Source: a virus (lineage: Duplodnaviria; Caudoviricetes). From it: a stretch of 30,464 nucleotides of DNA. This document shows positions 1,421 through 26,176 of this stretch, in pieces. Location of the stretch: positions 1 through 30,464 of the IMG/VR virus record IMGVR_UViG_3300029179_000020, one strand, 5' to 3'. Each line of letters starts with the position of its first letter. Positions within the stretch are counted from its first letter, which is position 1. Below the pieces are notes generated by a model, which was not told where the DNA came from, did not search any database, and was given only the letters and a program-made list of their open reading frames with translations. The position numbers and the translations under genes are program-made.

Positions 1421-2155
1421 TTATTTTTTACTATCGATTAACTTCAGTGCCTGCGCATGTGAGATCGACATGTCCGCATCTCCCGACCCTAGCTCTGCGT
1501 CAATCTTAAACCCTAGCTTTTGATAAAAACCAATCGCATCCTTGAGCGCCACAACCTTGACACCTTTTTTGTGCGCTGCCGTAGCAATTTTAAGAACCTC
1601 AACCACAGCTTGTGTGCCAGCACCTTTGACACCAGTACCTGCTAACGATTCAGGGCTTGCAACTAAATAATCAATCTCTGTTCCTTTTTTAGAGTGTGAG
1701 TACAATATGCCCGCGGCTGTCTCACCATTGGAGTCTTTTACCGTAGCTGCTATCTTGCTTGAATAGTTAGCATTTAGCTCACGCACCACGGCATCCCAAA
1801 CATCTGCGTTAAATAAGAGTTTATCTTTAGTTGCCTTGTCCTTTGCTACTTTCGCTAGCTTTCTGGCTTTAGCGGCGTTTTTTCTCGCAACATCTTTTGT
1901 TAAATCCTCAACGAGCCCGGGGCTCAGGCTAGAGACTGCGGATGTTTTAACGGGGGTAGCAGCAACGGGGGCGGGCTCACGGGCATCGGCACCCGATTTC
2001 TTTGAAACTGTTCTTTTAGGCAATGCTTTCGCGGCACCTGCAAGAGTTTCAAGCCCTTTAGCATTATTGTTTTGCGCATCAAATCGGCACTTGTAGCTCT
2101 TACGAATACAAGTATTGCCACATACGCGGCTTTTATCTGAACAGTTTTTTGTCAT
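1421..2155 (-). CDS. GNAT-family acetyltransferase with N-terminal four-Cys leader
   Basis: EIDYLVASP...GVKGAGT (acetyl-CoA motif A-like)...AIGFYQKLGF; leader KNCSDKSRVCGNTCIRKSYKCRFD. Confidence 0.75.
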   Translation of the reverse strand: MTKNCSDKSRVCGNTCIRKSYKCRFDAQNNNAKGLETLAGAAKALPKRTVSKKSGADAREPAPVAATPVKTSAVSSLSPGLVEDLTKDVARKNAAKARKLAKVAKDKATKDKLLFNADVWDAVVRELNANYSSKIAATVKDSNGETAAGILYSHSKKGTEIDYLVASPESLAGTGVKGAGTQAVVEVLKIATAAHKKGVKVVALKDAIGFYQKLGFKIDAELGSGDADMSISHAQALKLIDSKK

Positions 2156-6091: not shown

Positions 6092-8365
6092 CTAACTTTC
6101 CTCTAACTCTACGATGTTTCTACCGTTTTCAAAACGTTTGCTTTTGACTTTGAACTTAGTGCCCGCGTTAAATAGGATTTCACCTTCGTCAGCCTCGTTC
6201 TTGTAGTCATCCATGGGTTTGCCACCTGTGCCTTTGAGTTTAGGGGTAATGACAATCTCGACATCTCCCCCTGTCCAATTCCCTTTTAGCTTTCCTTCCA
6301 GGAAGTCAGATTGTGCCCCCACAGTAGTTGACATCAACCCTTTAGTTCTCCAATCCTTTCCTTCTGTGAATTGAGAAAGGAAAGCATCTGCACCATCACC
6401 CAGGTTCATTACTCTTCTTAATGTGGGGGGTACCTCTGGACGTGTTTCAAGGTCGTTATACTTCCCAGCCACAAGCCCCCAATCCGCAGAAGGAAGTTTG
6501 CTTATGCCCGCTACCATATCCTTTGCCATGGCTTTTATGTCGTTGTTGGTAACGGATGAAGGATTATAGAGCGCGCGATTAAGGTACTGAAACGCTGTCT
6601 CCTTCGCGTTAGCTCCTTTTAGTCCTTCTAAGGGGCTAATATACGCTGCTACTGCCGTGGCTTGGTTGTCGTCCATTCCTTTGGCTGCATTCTTTAATCT
6701 TGCAACTTTACGGTTATGATTATTCTTGCTAAATTGAACGCTATTTTCTAGGACGCTGTCGTAGTCTGACTCGTGCAGATAATTACCATCACTTTTAGGG
6801 TAAGTAAAATTCCCTACCTTCTTAGCTGGACTTGTGACACACTTAGAGCGGTTGAACACAATCATGTGTTTTTCTTCTGGCGTGTCCATCTCAGCCGTCA
6901 TAACCCCATCATAACCCAAGCTCATGGCTACAGCCGCGGGGTCTACCGTATCTACATTTGCCCTCTTAAGTTTATCCCTCAGCTTTTTATAGCTTTCAGC
7001 ATCCATGACTTTTGCATCGGTCTTAAGTCCCACTGCGAACACTGAACCATCCTTACCCGCGTACCATTCAGCTGTGCTTGCGGCTTCACTATTGTTAAAA
7101 CCTTTTGCAGCCGTAGCGACATAGTTACCATCACCATACACTCCTTTACCTACGAAATAATCATCGGCTGTAGCCTCTGCAAAGTTTTCTGCAATCCCAT
7201 CGCCCTCTTTAATACCCCTAAAACCGTAAATCTTGGTCTGTTTTGCAACATCATCCGCATTTCTTACGATTTGAGGTGCTTGCCTGTAGCTGGCGTATTC
7301 CGGTCTTGACATGAGCGCACCTACTGTCAACTCCTCGTCAAAACCTACGCCTGCTATAGAATTAAGACGTGATTTTAAAGCCTCGCCAGATATGTCACTT
7401 TCAATGATATCTCTGAGGTTCTGGTCAGTGTCCACGCTGACGAGAGCATCCAGGTGTTGCTTACTAGCTGAGGAGAGTTTGCTGTTGTTTTGTCTTGCTT
7501 GCTTACCTTTCTCTACATATTCCTTGTTCTGCTCGGCGTATATAGCTTGCACTTTTTTCTTAATGCCCTCTATCTTAGCCTCAGACGTTGTTTTCTCTTT
7601 TTCCGCAGCTTTTTTAATCTTTGCGGGAGAGGAAGAGCCTAGAATAAGTACATAATCATACTGGTCAGCTACATCTCCCTTGAGAGGTGTGTCCCCTGCT
7701 TGCGTCTCTAGTTCCAACTCTAAATTTAATTTTTTCAGAGGGTCTGTTTCCTCCTGCATCTTCTGCTTAAGTACCGCACTCTTGTAGTACTGTGCCGCAA
7801 TCTCTTTTACGATTCCTGTGGAGCGAGCTTCATATTGGGCTTTATCTAAACCACTGGAGTCTCCACTACTTAACAAATCCGCCGCCACTAATCTCTTAGC
7901 GTTTGCCTCTTCCGTTATCTTCTCTAAGTGCTTTTTAACTTCTTCAACACCTCCCTTTGCTTGAATATCTTCTAAGTTTTTAATGTAGTTTTCTCGTGCA
8001 GCCTTTACTTTAGCCATCTCAGGCTCTAGCTGTTGAAGTAAGGCTTCTTCTTTTTTCGCTGCTGCCTTCGTTGGGGGGTAAGTATTGCTAACACGGAACA
8101 GGTCTTTGATTAGGGCTGTGTTACCTGTACGCAAGGCTGTAAAAGCTCTTGCTGTGTCTTCCGCAGACTTGTCGATATCTACTGTGCTATCAGGTGCTTT
8201 AGCCGCAGGTGCTTTAGCCGCTTTTGCCTTAGTTTTCTTAGCAGCAGTTGCAAGCGTTGTTAGTCCTGCATTAGAGGTAGCGGGTGGGTCAAAGCGACAT
8301 TTATAGGATTTTTTAATACAAGTGTCACCGCATACGCGGGATTTTTCTGAACAATTCTTAGCCAT
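6092..8365 (-). CDS. Large protein: four-Cys leader, helical region and two ADP-ribosyltransferase-like domains
   Basis: C-terminal R-S-E ART (LNRAL, TLRR, GLMSTT, DEGEILF..GTKFKV); middle domain FRG...GVYGDGNY...AEWYA...GYDGV...MIVFN is a PARP-like ART pattern; ATG 8365 preferred by match to the GNAT leader. Confidence 0.75.
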   Translation of the reverse strand: MAKNCSEKSRVCGDTCIKKSYKCRFDPPATSNAGLTTLATAAKKTKAKAAKAPAAKAPDSTVDIDKSAEDTARAFTALRTGNTALIKDLFRVSNTYPPTKAAAKKEEALLQQLEPEMAKVKAARENYIKNLEDIQAKGGVEEVKKHLEKITEEANAKRLVAADLLSSGDSSGLDKAQYEARSTGIVKEIAAQYYKSAVLKQKMQEETDPLKKLNLELELETQAGDTPLKGDVADQYDYVLILGSSSPAKIKKAAEKEKTTSEAKIEGIKKKVQAIYAEQNKEYVEKGKQARQNNSKLSSASKQHLDALVSVDTDQNLRDIIESDISGEALKSRLNSIAGVGFDEELTVGALMSRPEYASYRQAPQIVRNADDVAKQTKIYGFRGIKEGDGIAENFAEATADDYFVGKGVYGDGNYVATAAKGFNNSEAASTAEWYAGKDGSVFAVGLKTDAKVMDAESYKKLRDKLKRANVDTVDPAAVAMSLGYDGVMTAEMDTPEEKHMIVFNRSKCVTSPAKKVGNFTYPKSDGNYLHESDYDSVLENSVQFSKNNHNRKVARLKNAAKGMDDNQATAVAAYISPLEGLKGANAKETAFQYLNRALYNPSSVTNNDIKAMAKDMVAGISKLPSADWGLVAGKYNDLETRPEVPPTLRRVMNLGDGADAFLSQFTEGKDWRTKGLMSTTVGAQSDFLEGKLKGNWTGGDVEIVITPKLKGTGGKPMDDYKNEADEGEILFNAGTKFKVKSKRFENGRNIVELEES

Positions 8366-8408
8366 GGTCACGTAAAAAAGCTTCTGTAGTACTTTCTGGA
8401 TAAAACAA

Positions 8409-10896: not shown

Positions 10897-11511
10897 TCAA
10901 GGTTTTCTAGGCTGTCTTCCTTTTTTCAAATTCGCTGAGGCTAGAACTAGAGCTAGCTCAGCGTTTTTTGTGTGGTAGGCTTGCCAGCTAGCTGTTAAAC
11001 GCAAGTCTTTAAAGGCATAAACGTTAGTAGCGACACTATTTAAATCTATATTATTTTCTTTACACCAGTCATCAACTAAGTCAGCAAAAGCCAGTCCAAT
11101 ATGATCAACATGGGTCTTGTTCCCCGCCAAAGGCTTACCTGATAGCGGACATCTCCAATCTTGCGTAAGTGTTTTAGCTCTCTGCTTGCGGTAGTTATCA
11201 ATATCAGCCTTGACCATATGTCGCATCGCCCCTAGAGCTTTTTCTCGGTTTGTTTGCACTTTGCCACTGAGTTTAGATTTCGTTAGTGGAACCATTTTAC
11301 CGTTAACGTGAGCATTTATAAGCTTACAACTATAGCGACCGCAGCTTGAGGACTCTACGGAAAAGTGTGTCGCTGTTAAACTGATAGCGACGTAGGCAGA
11401 AGTAGAGCGCAATACTCCACGAACAAAAGCAGATGCGGTCTCATTGAGCCTTATGCCACAGCTATGGGTTTTAATAATATTGCTCCAACGTTTGCCTTCT
11501 TCAGCGTTCAT
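10897..11511 (-). CDS. DCL/DUF3223-like protein with HNH-like C-terminus (putative nuclease)
   Basis: CPLSG...THVDH...FADLV...WQAYH...L.L...ANL pattern; AAAGTA box at 11556-11561. Confidence 0.55.
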   Translation of the reverse strand: MNAEEGKRWSNIIKTHSCGIRLNETASAFVRGVLRSTSAYVAISLTATHFSVESSSCGRYSCKLINAHVNGKMVPLTKSKLSGKVQTNREKALGAMRHMVKADIDNYRKQRAKTLTQDWRCPLSGKPLAGNKTHVDHIGLAFADLVDDWCKENNIDLNSVATNVYAFKDLRLTASWQAYHTKNAELALVLASANLKKGRQPRKP

Positions 11512-19829: not shown

Positions 19830-20123
19830 ATGGCAGTAAAAAATGCGGACAAGTTTTTAGCCTCTGTGATTCGCAGCGGCATTGACCAACCAATCAATCG
19901 TATCACGGACAAAGCTGGCAAACCTTTAACGGAAGACAACGCTTGGGGTTGGAATGATGAGCGCGAAGCTTTTGAAGGCATGTTTGTTTCGGGACGAGAA
20001 ATACTTGACTATAGTATTGAGAAAAACTCCAAAGGTGGCTGGAGTGTTGAGTTTGAACCTAGCAAACGCGTTAAGAACAACGGTGTAGTTGATGATGCGG
20101 ACGAAAACGAAACGGGAAAGTAG
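19830..20123 (+). CDS. Hypothetical late protein (97 aa), short form of a frameshifted gene
   Basis: Ends ACG GGA AAG TAG. Confidence 0.75.
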   Translation: MAVKNADKFLASVIRSGIDQPINRITDKAGKPLTEDNAWGWNDEREAFEGMFVSGREILDYSIEKNSKGGWSVEFEPSKRVKNNGVVDDADENETGK

Positions 20124-20175
20124 AATCCTTTAGCGAAAGCCGTGTTGGCATTGTTGTTGCCAGCGACGCTAAAGG
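20114..20175 (+). other. Programmed -1 ribosomal frameshift signal
   Basis: G GGA AAG at 20114-20120, 6-nt spacer, stem CCTTTAGCG/CGCTAAAGG with inner GTTGGCA/TGCCAGC. Confidence 0.75.
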
Positions 20176-20392
20176 TAAAAAATTTAAAGTCCTAACGAAA
20201 GAAGGCAAAACCATTCACTTTGGTGCCGAAGGCTATGTTATTGGGCAAGTAGGCAGTGAAAAGTGGAAGTCTTATTGTGCTCGTAGCAAAGCTATCACGG
20301 GAGATGAAGGCATTAGCGCTAACTGGCTAAGCCGTCGCATGTGGAAGTGCCCCGGGTTAAAACCTTTAGGGCTGGGAGATTCAATTTATTAA
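20120..20392 (+). CDS. -1 frame extension (90 aa), DUF5754-like basic domain; fusion ~187 aa
   Basis: VESFSESRVG...KKFKV...GKTIHFGAEGY...SYCARS...SANWLSRRMW; TGA at 20093-20095 in this frame and no ATG/GTG/TTG before the domain. Confidence 0.7.
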   Translation, partial: VESFSESRVGIVVASDAKGKKFKVLTKEGKTIHFGAEGYVIGQVGSEKWKSYCARSKAITGDEGISANWLSRRMWKCPGLKPLGLGDSIY

Positions 20393-20555
20393 AGAGTACA
20401 ACCCTTTATACGTAAGCATTTTAGCACAGGCGCTCCAGAGTTAATCTGAGAGCGTTTTCTCTTTAGGTATAATCCCAAGGCAAACAGTTTTAACACGCCT
20501 TGTAGCGCATCCTCGCGGGAGTAATTTTTTGCCAGAGCACAAAATATTTTTAAAG

Positions 20556-20601
20556 TTCCGTATTTTCACGGATGTCTAACCACGCTAAAGCGACGTATTA
20601 T
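20556..20601 (+). promoter_or_regulatory. Palindromic-operator promoter (TTCCGTA-N4-CACGGATG-N21-TATTAT)
   Basis: Motif match; no plus-strand ORF follows. Confidence 0.7.
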
Positions 20602-20607
20602 ATAAAT

Positions 20608-20892
20608 ATAGCGCAAGAGGTAAAGCGCTTAAGAAACGATACCTCCAACGAGCAGCAGTTGACAAATCGCCGCTAAGAGCAAAGAATCTAGCTCTAGGTA
20701 AATAAAGGGATTCCGCACCAAGTAAGCTGATGCGTAAGAAAGATAGCTTACCAGCGACGCGCTCTGACAAACGCGAACCCGTGCCAGGTTTAGGAAGTTG
20801 CCTGTAGTAAAAAAACTTCTGCCTCCCACTGAGGTTGCTCCGAGTAAGGCAATATGTGGAACTCTTGAGCGGAATCGCGCGAACGCTCAAGA
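20608..20892 (+). ncRNA. Candidate structured ncRNA (~285 nt), family unknown
   Basis: Promoter upstream; 5' pseudoknot, several hairpins, a long-range helix and a 9-bp terminal hairpin. Confidence 0.55.
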
Positions 20893-22887
20893 CTAATAGA
20901 CGACAGCAATAAATTCGTCATCGGGACTGACAATGCCAAAAAGTACTGGCGGGTTGTAGTCCGTTGGCGAGTTTATGTCATTGGCAGAGGTGCTGGCGCT
21001 TAGGTCAATTGTACCCACACCGTTTAGGGATTTCAGCAACCCATTATAGGCATAGATAAAAGCATCAGGCTCTATATATACCGCGAGAGAATCAACGTAG
21101 AATTCGTAGGCATTGCTTTCGGCGCTAACGGTAGAACGTGAAAGAGGTCTAACGGCTAAATCTAACCTGTCTGCATCACTGCTAACGCTATAAGCATTTG
21201 CTCTGCCCCAATCCAGTGCTGACAAGTTCTTTAACAAGGTCTTTGTCGTACTGTAGCCGCTAAAGCGATTAGGATCTACGGTATATGTGACGGTGCGACG
21301 CAAGCTTCCTGTGTTGGCGGTATTGAGCCTAAAGAGCAAAGGCTTGTTTGTTAGACTATATTGGCTAGGGAATCTGGCGGGTTCTTCAGGGGTTGTGTTT
21401 TGCTCGGCTCTGTTGCTACGTAATTTGCGAACCGTCAACGTAGGTATAACAGACCCTAGTGCTACGGGCGAGCTAACGGCGAACTCTTGTGCCGCTGAGG
21501 GGTCATTAAGTAGGTCAGTTTGGTAAATTACTTCGCGGCTTGACCATTGCTTGCGGTTTTTACTCCGTGTCCACGTTTTAACTATATCTTCCTCGTAAAT
21601 CCCTTGTGCGGGGTTATAATCCACCTCACCTGCTTCTGCTGTTCTCCCTAGTTTTTTGTGTCCAGCCCAAGGAGCGCTGACACCTAGCGTACCAATCTTT
21701 TGTCTACGGTATTGAATATAGTTGCCTGATAGGTTTAAGCCACCAGGGGAACCGCCACCAATTACATCAATTACAACAGGCTGACCATCTGGCTCGCTGT
21801 AATTGTAAACCCAAGTCTCTGTTAATCTGCTAACGAGTGTTTCCGCACCATAGCTATAGATCGTGCTACTGCCAGGGTTATCTAGCTCATATTTTAATCT
21901 GGTAGTGATGAATTGCTCATAAGCGATGCCGAAAGCTTTGCGAACTTCAGTAACGCGCCTAATTAAACGACCGGGGTCATCATAGGTGCAACCATCACGG
22001 TTTAAGTCTTTATCTGTTTCATACGTCTCCTCAATACGTCGCTTCTCAAGCAACACACCTGAGCCACTAGCGTAAAGGTTGCCAGCCCCTGTGGAGATTG
22101 ACTCGTAAATAATGCGACGTGTATTGGGTATGATGTCTTTTGTCTCAGTCAGTGTTCCTTCGGCAGTTGTAACGGTATCTGTTTCGTTTAAATCTATTTG
22201 GTCTAATTGAGGGTCAGCCGTTGAAAGTTGGTAGCGGCTTGCAGGTAGTTCTGTACTGTATTCTTTAGTAAAGCGGTAAAGCGTTGGCTCCGTCTCAGTC
22301 ACATGTGCTGTCGCGGGGTAATCAAACGTAGCAAAACGAACTATGCCAGCCCTGTCGCTATAGAGAAAACCATTGTTAGAAAAAGCGATGGAGCCTGCGA
22401 CCTGTATAGCTGATGTGTTGCCACGCGAAAGTTGTATATCTCGAACCTGCCCCGTAATAGTAGGGATTGTGTTAGGGATATCTAGACCATCAAGTATTAA
22501 GCCAATAGCGACGCTAGCGTTCATGCTTTGCTGAGGTTGTTGGCAAATTAGCGACCGCCCTAGTTCGTTGCTGTTGTTTAGCCCTAGCAAGCACGTTAGC
22601 TTAAGCGTTAGGACTTCCCGCCTCTCATCTAACTCATAGCCTTCAATCCATAGCGAACCAAGTACGGGAATCTCTGTCGCGTTGCGGTATAGCTTAACGG
22701 CTCTGCCAGTACGTATGTCGCTTAACCCTAGAGTTCCGCTATTGCGCAGTAGCAAATCGCCCGTAATAATAACAAAACCATTGGTATCGACCGCGCTGTA
22801 AACTGCTTGGGCGCTGATGATGTCATTGTTAACGTTTATCCCGTTTACTGTACCAGTTATTGCGTTTGGAACTAAGTTTAAACCCAT
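20893..22887 (-). CDS. Minor tail / tail-tip protein (664 aa)
   Basis: Hub-like N-term (LTLKLTCLLG...FLYSDRAGIVRF); AAAGTA box at 22922-22927. Confidence 0.6.
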   Translation of the reverse strand: MGLNLVPNAITGTVNGINVNNDIISAQAVYSAVDTNGFVIITGDLLLRNSGTLGLSDIRTGRAVKLYRNATEIPVLGSLWIEGYELDERREVLTLKLTCLLGLNNSNELGRSLICQQPQQSMNASVAIGLILDGLDIPNTIPTITGQVRDIQLSRGNTSAIQVAGSIAFSNNGFLYSDRAGIVRFATFDYPATAHVTETEPTLYRFTKEYSTELPASRYQLSTADPQLDQIDLNETDTVTTAEGTLTETKDIIPNTRRIIYESISTGAGNLYASGSGVLLEKRRIEETYETDKDLNRDGCTYDDPGRLIRRVTEVRKAFGIAYEQFITTRLKYELDNPGSSTIYSYGAETLVSRLTETWVYNYSEPDGQPVVIDVIGGGSPGGLNLSGNYIQYRRQKIGTLGVSAPWAGHKKLGRTAEAGEVDYNPAQGIYEEDIVKTWTRSKNRKQWSSREVIYQTDLLNDPSAAQEFAVSSPVALGSVIPTLTVRKLRSNRAEQNTTPEEPARFPSQYSLTNKPLLFRLNTANTGSLRRTVTYTVDPNRFSGYSTTKTLLKNLSALDWGRANAYSVSSDADRLDLAVRPLSRSTVSAESNAYEFYVDSLAVYIEPDAFIYAYNGLLKSLNGVGTIDLSASTSANDINSPTDYNPPVLFGIVSPDDEFIAVVY

Positions 22888-25966: not shown

Positions 25967-26176
25967 ATGAATTGTTGTGGAACTTTAATTACGCAAGCAC
26001 ACGCTGAGCCAAACGAAAACCAACTCGCTTGCATCGGAGAAGCCCAGGACTGGATGGCTATTCACGAGGCTGGCATAACTGTTGTGGAGGTTTCACTCGT
26101 TAATGGTGTTATAACGTCCGTGCTAACGGAAAAGAAAACTTCGGTGAAAACACGGGTTGCTAAGCGACGTAAATAG
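25967..26176 (+). CDS. Small hypothetical protein
   Basis: ORF track; AAGGA upstream. Confidence 0.55.
   Translation: MNCCGTLITQAHAEPNENQLACIGEAQDWMAIHEAGITVVEVSLVNGVITSVLTEKKTSVKTRVAKRRK

Follow-up and report, generated by a model that had tools for sequence, protein, structure and literature searches.

A candidate cyanophage RNA gene with a predicted tandem-pseudoknot design

A stretch of about 285 nt on the plus strand of a phage genome fragment appears to encode a real, uncatalogued RNA of tandem-pseudoknot design. Judging from the modelled structure, we consider it likely that the element is an RNA gene whose product folds as a chain of pseudoknots. More tentatively, and with somewhat greater doubt than conviction, we propose that it is a stand-alone, early phage gene whose ~285-nt RNA would act as a multivalent decoy, titrating a host protein that binds pseudoknots. 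The DNA analysed (hereafter the window, 30,464 nt) is an entire virus record with an estimated completeness of 22 %, and its genes include those for the portal, major capsid, protease and terminase. Because the capsid (44 %) and terminase (40 %) are closest to those of cyanophage S-TIM5, the record is likely to be a cyanophage fragment and its host a cyanobacterium. The nearest capsid other than the record's own (64 matches) is 53 % identical, and the lineage is therefore thinly sampled. An initial annotation, made from the letters of the DNA, had proposed an undescribed, promoter-driven phage non-coding RNA at this position, and that proposal is supported by the promoter context, by a non-coding antisense frame and by non-random structure.

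Predicted architecture of the RNA

The units of the chain were spotted by eye, as loops pairing just downstream, and a finder for H-type pseudoknots was written afterwards. It accepts stems of 4-9 bp with at most one G-U pair each, L1 of 1-4 nt, L2 of 0-2 nt and L3 of 4-14 nt, and it scores by stacking energy only, ignoring loop penalties. Within these limits the finder places five pseudoknots along the plus strand without overlap, of which four are strong, and relaxed limits fill 20646-74, 20752-75 and 20821-45 (Table 1). Units 1 to 7 measure 24-38 nt each and are separated by linkers of 0, 1, 0, 0, 9 and 0 nt. The weak PK2 is drawn from the relaxed finder together with a mirror view on the reverse strand. 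PK1 corresponds to the 5' pseudoknot of the initial annotation (AGCGC/GCGCT with GAGGTA/TACCTC), which is thus supported. PK1 and PK4 have nearly the same L3 and form the best, and the only clearly similar, of the 21 unit pairs (similarity z 4.3); TRF found no tandem sequence repeats in the chain.

Table 1. Predicted features of the element and its surroundings (window positions unless another locus is named)
Feature	Positions	Strand	Description
Promoter-like motif copies	3298, 9446, 10476, 15919, 20553, 25276(-), 26137		
Palindromic upstream element	20553..20574	+	Activator/operator-like box; repeated motif, 7 copies
-10-like hexamer and inferred start (~20607-20609)	20596..20609	+	Box spacing same as in ORF-leading copies
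PK1, strong H-type	20610..20645	+	S1 5 bp, L1 2 nt, S2 6 bp, L2 2 nt, L3 10 nt, A-rich
PK1 S2	20617-22/20640-45	+	Predicted
PK2, weak	20646..20674	+	S1 4 bp; S2 3 bp, or 6 bp with one A-C mismatch
PK3, strong H-type	20676..20713	+	S1 5 bp, L1 3 nt, S2 6 bp, L2 1 nt, L3 12 nt
PK3 S2	20684-89/20708-13	+	Predicted
PK4, strong H-type	20714..20751	+	S1 4 bp, L1 4 nt, S2 8 bp, L2 1 nt, L3 9 nt
PK4 S2	20722-29/20744-51	+	Predicted
PK5, weak	20752..20784	+	Two registers: 20752-75 or 20758-87
PK6, strong H-type	20785..20820	+	S1 5 bp, L1 3 nt, S2 7 bp, L2 0 nt, L3 9 nt
PK6 S2	20793-99/20814-20	+	Predicted
PK7 region	20821..20864	+	Either of two small pseudoknots, 20821-45 or 20835-64, which overlap and exclude each other
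Terminal hairpin	20863..20892	+	9 bp, without U-run; z -3.5 on plus strand
Antisense frame	20585..20890	-	101 codons, judged spurious
Convergent gene	20893..22887	-	664 aa, possibly tail hub/Tal-like; stop codon abuts terminal hairpin
Sister RNA loci	L003:5725-6400; L007, L008, L009, L010, L011 at ~1570-1950		

The helices for which the initial annotation gave positions are all present as strings, and every named helix of at least 5 bp recurs in our helix list. The dense nested pairing read from them was not borne out: the folding z-score against shuffles, which had been suggested as a check, is about 0 on the plus strand (minimum free energy z = -0.05 and -0.02), the nested fold of the minus strand giving z = -1.9. 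The stretch has no surplus of 5-6 bp helices over shuffles (62 vs 67; 20 vs 19), and only those of at least 8 bp are in excess (4 vs 1.3; 1 of 60 shuffles). A long-range helix thought to close a multibranch domain (20711-17/20855-61) has a pair probability of 0.13, and an alternative helix thought to act as a switch (20709-16/20869-76) one of 0.40; neither domain nor switch is supported, and the two helices share bases 20709-17 with PK3 and PK4. The hairpins at 20676-95, 20722-51 and 20793-820 are present, but the predicted architecture differs from the one in which they had been placed, each hairpin supplying a stem to its own H-type pseudoknot. The terminal hairpin, correctly picked out from the start, is the only locally stable one, on the minus strand (z -3.0) as well as on the plus. 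No intrinsic terminator was predicted at this hairpin; it is likely to form the 3' end of the RNA and is possibly shared with the convergent mRNA.

The summed stacking energy of the chain is -98.1, compared with -20.7 +/- 14.0 in dinucleotide shuffles, none of 6,000 being as low, and the stretch holds four strong pseudoknots where no shuffle of the 6,000 held more than two. The chain was likewise matched by none of 6,000 shuffles when G-U pairs were barred or when S2 was required to have at least 5 bp, by two of 6,000 under wide loop limits, and by one of 3,000 when PK1, the unit already read in the initial annotation, was left out. Under tight loop limits 66 of 6,000 shuffles match, because only two units fit such loops. 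Of 2,012 windows scanned across the two strands of its record, that of the chain scores best; in other loci a value of -98 is reached by 19 of 46,776 windows, the best of which are GC-rich and largely copies of one another. When only A-rich loops were admitted, no cluster in 3.39 Mb of phage DNA (both strands, the chain itself included) ranked above it, and one other three-unit cluster was found there. The loops of the four strong units contain A at 37 of 56 positions, against a fraction of 0.35 +/- 0.07 in equally strong chance pseudoknots (p = 5e-5); loops being unscored, their composition is independent of the finder score. On the plus strand, pseudoknots of mirror geometry (long L1, short L3) show no enrichment (-27.9 vs -20.4 +/- 13.8), and it is therefore the short-L1, long-L3 form that lies on the promoter's strand. 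As a positive control, the finder recovered both pseudoknots of the Syn9 wcaG RNA.

These figures bear on the possibility that the stretch is non-functional, either spacer or the remains of a gene downstream of an orphaned promoter, its knots having arisen by chance. Such a reading could draw on the nested z of about 0, on the occurrence of the chain in a single genome and on the post hoc design of the finder. We consider it very improbable in view of the outcome of the 6,000 shuffles, the A-rich loops, the strand-specific geometry, the abutting units and a GC content of 0.49 in the stretch against 0.45 in the genome.

The promoter-like motif and the surrounding genes

The element is preceded by a promoter-like motif consisting of a palindromic box and, ~21 nt on, a -10-like hexamer. 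The initial annotation had described five copies, the other four standing before small ORFs; the motif is real, but the count is seven, against an expectation of 0.12 (0 of 100 shuffles). Elsewhere in the window, five of six copies have an ATG 56-64 nt downstream that opens an ORF of 32-79 aa, and the sixth, at 26137, also leads to an ATG and a 62-aa ORF, so that of the seven the copy at 20553 is the sole one with no downstream ATG or ORF. The motif is common to otherwise distant cyanophage-like records (G001, G002 and L077 among them), and an ORF lies downstream of ten of ten copies in phage G001 and of two of three in G002. The start-codon spacing and the small genes served lead us to infer a promoter function for the motif, with early activity. 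For the repeated inter-ORF motifs of phages A-1 and N-1, the accessible text of one study gives a role as promoters or possibly stoperators (PMC4916379). Scans with the promoter pattern returned 0 and 36 loci in IMG/VR, 21 in metagenomes and one in genomes; the cyanophage-like loci examined among them had ORFs or other sequence downstream, and none had a similar RNA. Sigma-70-like matches number six in 800 nt (1.2 expected), one at 20659-20687 (+) within the RNA and one at 20624-20597 (-) antisense to the -10 region.

As had been noted initially, no plus-strand ORF of at least 40 aa lies in 20607-20892. The antisense frame, whose conservation at codon level had been named as one of the findings that would overturn a non-coding reading, scores -0.106 bits per codon, under the first percentile (-0.04) of 115 windows from real genes, and has no homologue (none of nine candidates at E <= 1). 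The protein of the convergent gene has structure neighbours in the ESM Atlas that include gp44/GpP-like hubs, and because all of them fall under the bar for naming, the hub label is a lead only. The protein shows no BLASTP similarity to the hub/lysozyme of phage Elbi and has no relative but itself among 8,000 scored candidates.

This arrangement might suggest that the element acts in cis, convergent transcription and a decay-resistant knotted RNA together fixing the 3' end of the late tail transcript or its timing. The convergent gene has its stop codon directly against the terminal hairpin, which is stable on either strand, and a convergent layout recurs at five of the six A-1-group loci described below. 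However, the hairpin alone would suffice for such a role, the pseudoknot geometry fits the plus strand only and the RNA body does not overlap coding sequence; we regard an antisense or roadblock function as quite improbable.

Several other features of the record were observed. Within 19830-20395 (+), a 97-aa ORF ends in a slippery heptamer at 20114-20120, which we take to be of the lambda-G/T type, with a stem-loop (-21.7 kcal/mol) 6 nt on. The -1 frame that follows runs for ~90 more codons, has no start codon of its own, scores as coding and matches DUF5754 above the cut-off, and the region is a candidate for programmed -1 frameshifting. A search for DUF5754-like frames gave two distant loci, both without the motif or a pseudoknot chain. 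A direct repeat of 300 nt (9-308 and 479-778; 98 % identity) duplicates a gene start (110-aa and 266-aa ORFs). A 204-aa ORF at 10897-11511 (-) matches the PADLOC HamC model (Hachiman-associated, DUF3223; E 5e-13), and a 759-aa protein adjoining the portal gene (6092-8371, -) has a weak C-terminal ADP-ribosyltransferase-like Pfam match, below the cut-off. Short palindromic intergenic hairpins occur at 1390, 2189, 9725, 24953, 29768 and other positions (repeat families D2, D7, D8 and D17) and are probably terminators or operator sites.

Searches for relatives and the RNAs of A-1-group phages

With blastn, the RNA body gave the promoter match only among 50,697 phage records and one chance match among plasmids. 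That sole phage match is the motif in Anabaena phage Elbi (77 % identity over ~70 nt, with an identical 14-mer in the -10 region). An exact 18-mer search in IMG/VR returned three matches, all within unrelated coding DNA, a two-loop pattern search returned none, the body matched none of 41 S-TIM5-like records (from 80 loci returned), and five named phages gave promoter or chance matches only. Collecting homologues and testing their covariation had been suggested at the outset; the searches recovered none for the RNA body, which leaves no orthologues in which covariation could show.

Rfam covariance models, including those of self-cleaving ribozymes, riboswitches, RNase P, SRP and introns, gave no match at E <= 1 in the window, and on 401 nt at E <= 10 they gave two unrelated chance matches only. 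ARAGORN and the tmRNA model found no tmRNA, and a tRNA-like domain, T-loop and 5' G-run motif are all absent. These searches confirm the initial impression that the RNA matches no tRNA, tmRNA, SRP RNA, RNase P RNA or intron core. Of the roles then imagined for it, those of ribozyme and switch find no support, and a decoy is a tentative candidate. Self-cleaving ribozymes and tmRNA are built from pseudoknots, and tmRNA has them in tandem. That the element is such a ribozyme or a tmRNA remnant is nonetheless extremely unlikely, given that the 401-nt search matched no such family, that the tmRNA searches were empty and that the knots are serial, not nested. Resemblances to group I introns, RNase P, HEARO/omegaRNA and Cas12k tracrRNA were considered and dropped, the catalogued ones having no Rfam support. 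The Rfam ToxI model (RF02519) gave no match; PF13958 was not detected in this 22 %-complete record, and its control matched nowhere either. The wcaG model (RF01761) had no match in the record at E <= 10, compared with 78.6 bits for the Syn9 positive control, and 144 of 300 shuffles aligned locally to wcaG as well as the RNA did. Our search of the literature, in which subscription journals were thinly covered, found no account of the element or of phage pseudoknot-chain RNA genes; supplements aside, a 2026 preprint on the A-1 group (10.64898/2026.02.14.705889) mentions non-coding RNA once, in the context of TnpB.

A near-identical motif fronts ORF-poor stretches of 250-360 nt in Elbi, A-1(L), YongM, YongM2, Dfl-JY23 and N1. 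From these six Anabaena, Nostoc and Dolichospermum phages we assembled a set of seven sister RNAs, leaving out A1, which also has a match. The sister RNAs are of two types, A and B, both of which Elbi carries in tandem; they are flanked by the tape-measure gene on one side and the hub/lysozyme gene on the other, and in some records short hypothetical ORFs are annotated opposite them. In type B (four sequences), 98.8 % of 160 cells are paired and nine pairs have changed on both sides, as in none of 500 shuffles, the structure having been drawn from the same four sequences that were used for covariation. A 3' pseudoknot module with compensatory stems is present in all seven, twice in YongM and YongM2, making nine copies. 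The sister RNAs show covariation and a long-range pseudoknot, and they have no Rfam match above chance. These observations show that in other phages the motif precedes genes for structured RNAs.

The window RNA has no significant match to the sister RNAs (type B model R1, nhmmer), and its local alignments to the seven score within the range of shuffles. Like it, the A-1-group RNAs have the promoter motif, a place in the tail region, an ORF-poor length of 250-360 nt and L3 loops that start with UAG or AUAG; unlike it, they have branched 5' domains and carry the 3' module in one or two copies. They are not strict chains, one of the seven beating all 60 shuffles.

The location of these RNAs, between tape-measure and hub genes, would fit a structural or scaffold role for a real knotted RNA, in virion assembly, packaging or a phage ribonucleoprotein. 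The window element, too, stands among likely structural genes and converges on a hub-like gene, and its abutting stems suggest a rigid rod. We nevertheless think a scaffold unlikely: the other copies of the promoter motif stand before small ORFs that are not structural, the hub assignment is the lead described above, and the N1 RNA is in the opposite orientation relative to the tape-measure and hub genes.

A possible decoy and its likeness to known RNAs

We hypothesize that the RNA would be transcribed from ~20607, together with the small genes under the common motif, and would fold locally: the A-rich L3 loops would lie in the minor groove of S1, and the abutting stems would stack as one compact rod that resists nucleases. 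It would then function in trans through multivalent protein binding, a mode of action that we favour because no same-strand gene follows, because no catalytic or ligand-binding core was found and because several similar modules are present. The most likely target would be a host anti-phage ribonuclease of the kind checked by pseudoknot antitoxins; ribosomal protein S1 or an RNA-decay enzyme are other candidates. If the element is indeed an RNA gene with the chain fold, a decoy function seems a finely balanced proposition, and if it is a decoy, an antitoxin-type target, argued by analogy, is conceivable but somewhat doubtful. It is tempting to extend the idea to a broad-spectrum decoy, in which the divergent pseudoknots of the cassette would mimic different antitoxin-like RNAs and disarm several host ribonucleases. 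Although improbable, such a cassette, if real, would imply that cyanobacteria possess pseudoknot-controlled defence nucleases and that there is a wider modular class of pseudoknot-chain RNAs, the A-1-group RNAs included.

Phage anti-defence RNAs are barely catalogued, and since a stand-alone, divergent chain is invisible to minimum free energy z-scores and to Rfam, RNAs of this kind have probably been missed. The source phage is uncultured, yet its RNA can be synthesized and probed. The sister-RNA phages A-1(L), Elbi, N1 and YongM grow on Anabaena PCC 7120 or related strains, and function is therefore directly testable in them.

Serial pseudoknots are a feature of the tobamovirus upstream pseudoknot domain and of tmRNA (pk2-pk4). 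The window RNA also shares its classical H-type geometry with the T4/T2 gene 32 leader pseudoknot, for which coaxial stacking is described in the accessible part of the source (PMC3014915). However, the gene 32 leader pseudoknot belongs to an mRNA, the tobamovirus domain to a viral genome and the tmRNA pseudoknots to a tRNA-like RNA, whereas the window RNA lacks both a gene downstream and a tRNA-like domain.

The wcaG RNA of T4-like cyanophages, which the accessible text of PMC2864571 describes as probably a 5' UTR element or as a candidate riboswitch, also resolves into small tandem H-type pseudoknots. In Syn9 there are two such modules, with a U-rich L1, a 4-nt L3 and a repeated 5-nt tail motif, while the modules predicted in the window RNA are larger, number up to seven and have A-rich loops, and this RNA stands alone and lacks the tail motif; nor is it placed as a 5' UTR, there being no plus-strand gene before the convergent one. 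A third small pseudoknot module with a similar tail motif was seen in Syn9 (L239:1417-1455), ~50 nt upstream of the Rfam wcaG match. The resemblance of the Syn9 modules, and the alternative pairing of 20709-16, which would cost PK3 and PK4, might point to an analogue of wcaG/manA, in which small modules that sense ligands or proteins are strung into an aptamer array or switch. With no match to the wcaG model, no similarity in sequence or tail motif and no downstream gene to regulate, we see little likelihood of this.

The decoy reading draws on a different comparison. Type III antitoxin arrays (ToxI, antiQ, CptI and tenpI) also consist of consecutive H-type pseudoknots, of ~34-45 nt, in one transcript. 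In the accessible parts of the published accounts, ToxI monomers are H-type pseudoknots of 34-36 nt with single-stranded tails (PMC5086642), such tails are bound and cut by the toxins (PMC5086642, PMC13682666), an A-rich minor-groove loop of CptI is needed for function (PMC4627078) and tenpI repeats can be non-identical (PMC13682666). The four strong units predicted in the window RNA, at 36-38 nt, are of antitoxin size, and their A-rich loops recall that of CptI. Unlike type III antitoxins, however, the units are divergent in sequence and mostly abut without single-stranded tails, although some would gain tails if PK2 and PK5 stay unfolded, and the next gene is convergent, not a toxin in the same operon. 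Type III systems are reported in only eight phyla, cyanobacteria being absent from the main text of the review concerned (PMC5086642), and the text of PMC5367252, its figure aside, offers no evidence of type III toxins in cyanobacteria. Since the RNA thus falls outside the type III antitoxins, we put forward the decoy only tentatively and think it improbable, by analogy, that the RNA mimics antitoxins. A precedent for a stand-alone mimic encoded by a phage does exist: in the accessible text on phage phiTE, ToxIN is suppressed by pseudo-ToxI repeats (PMC3475682), the only pseudoknot decoy that our literature search, partial in its sources, brought to light.
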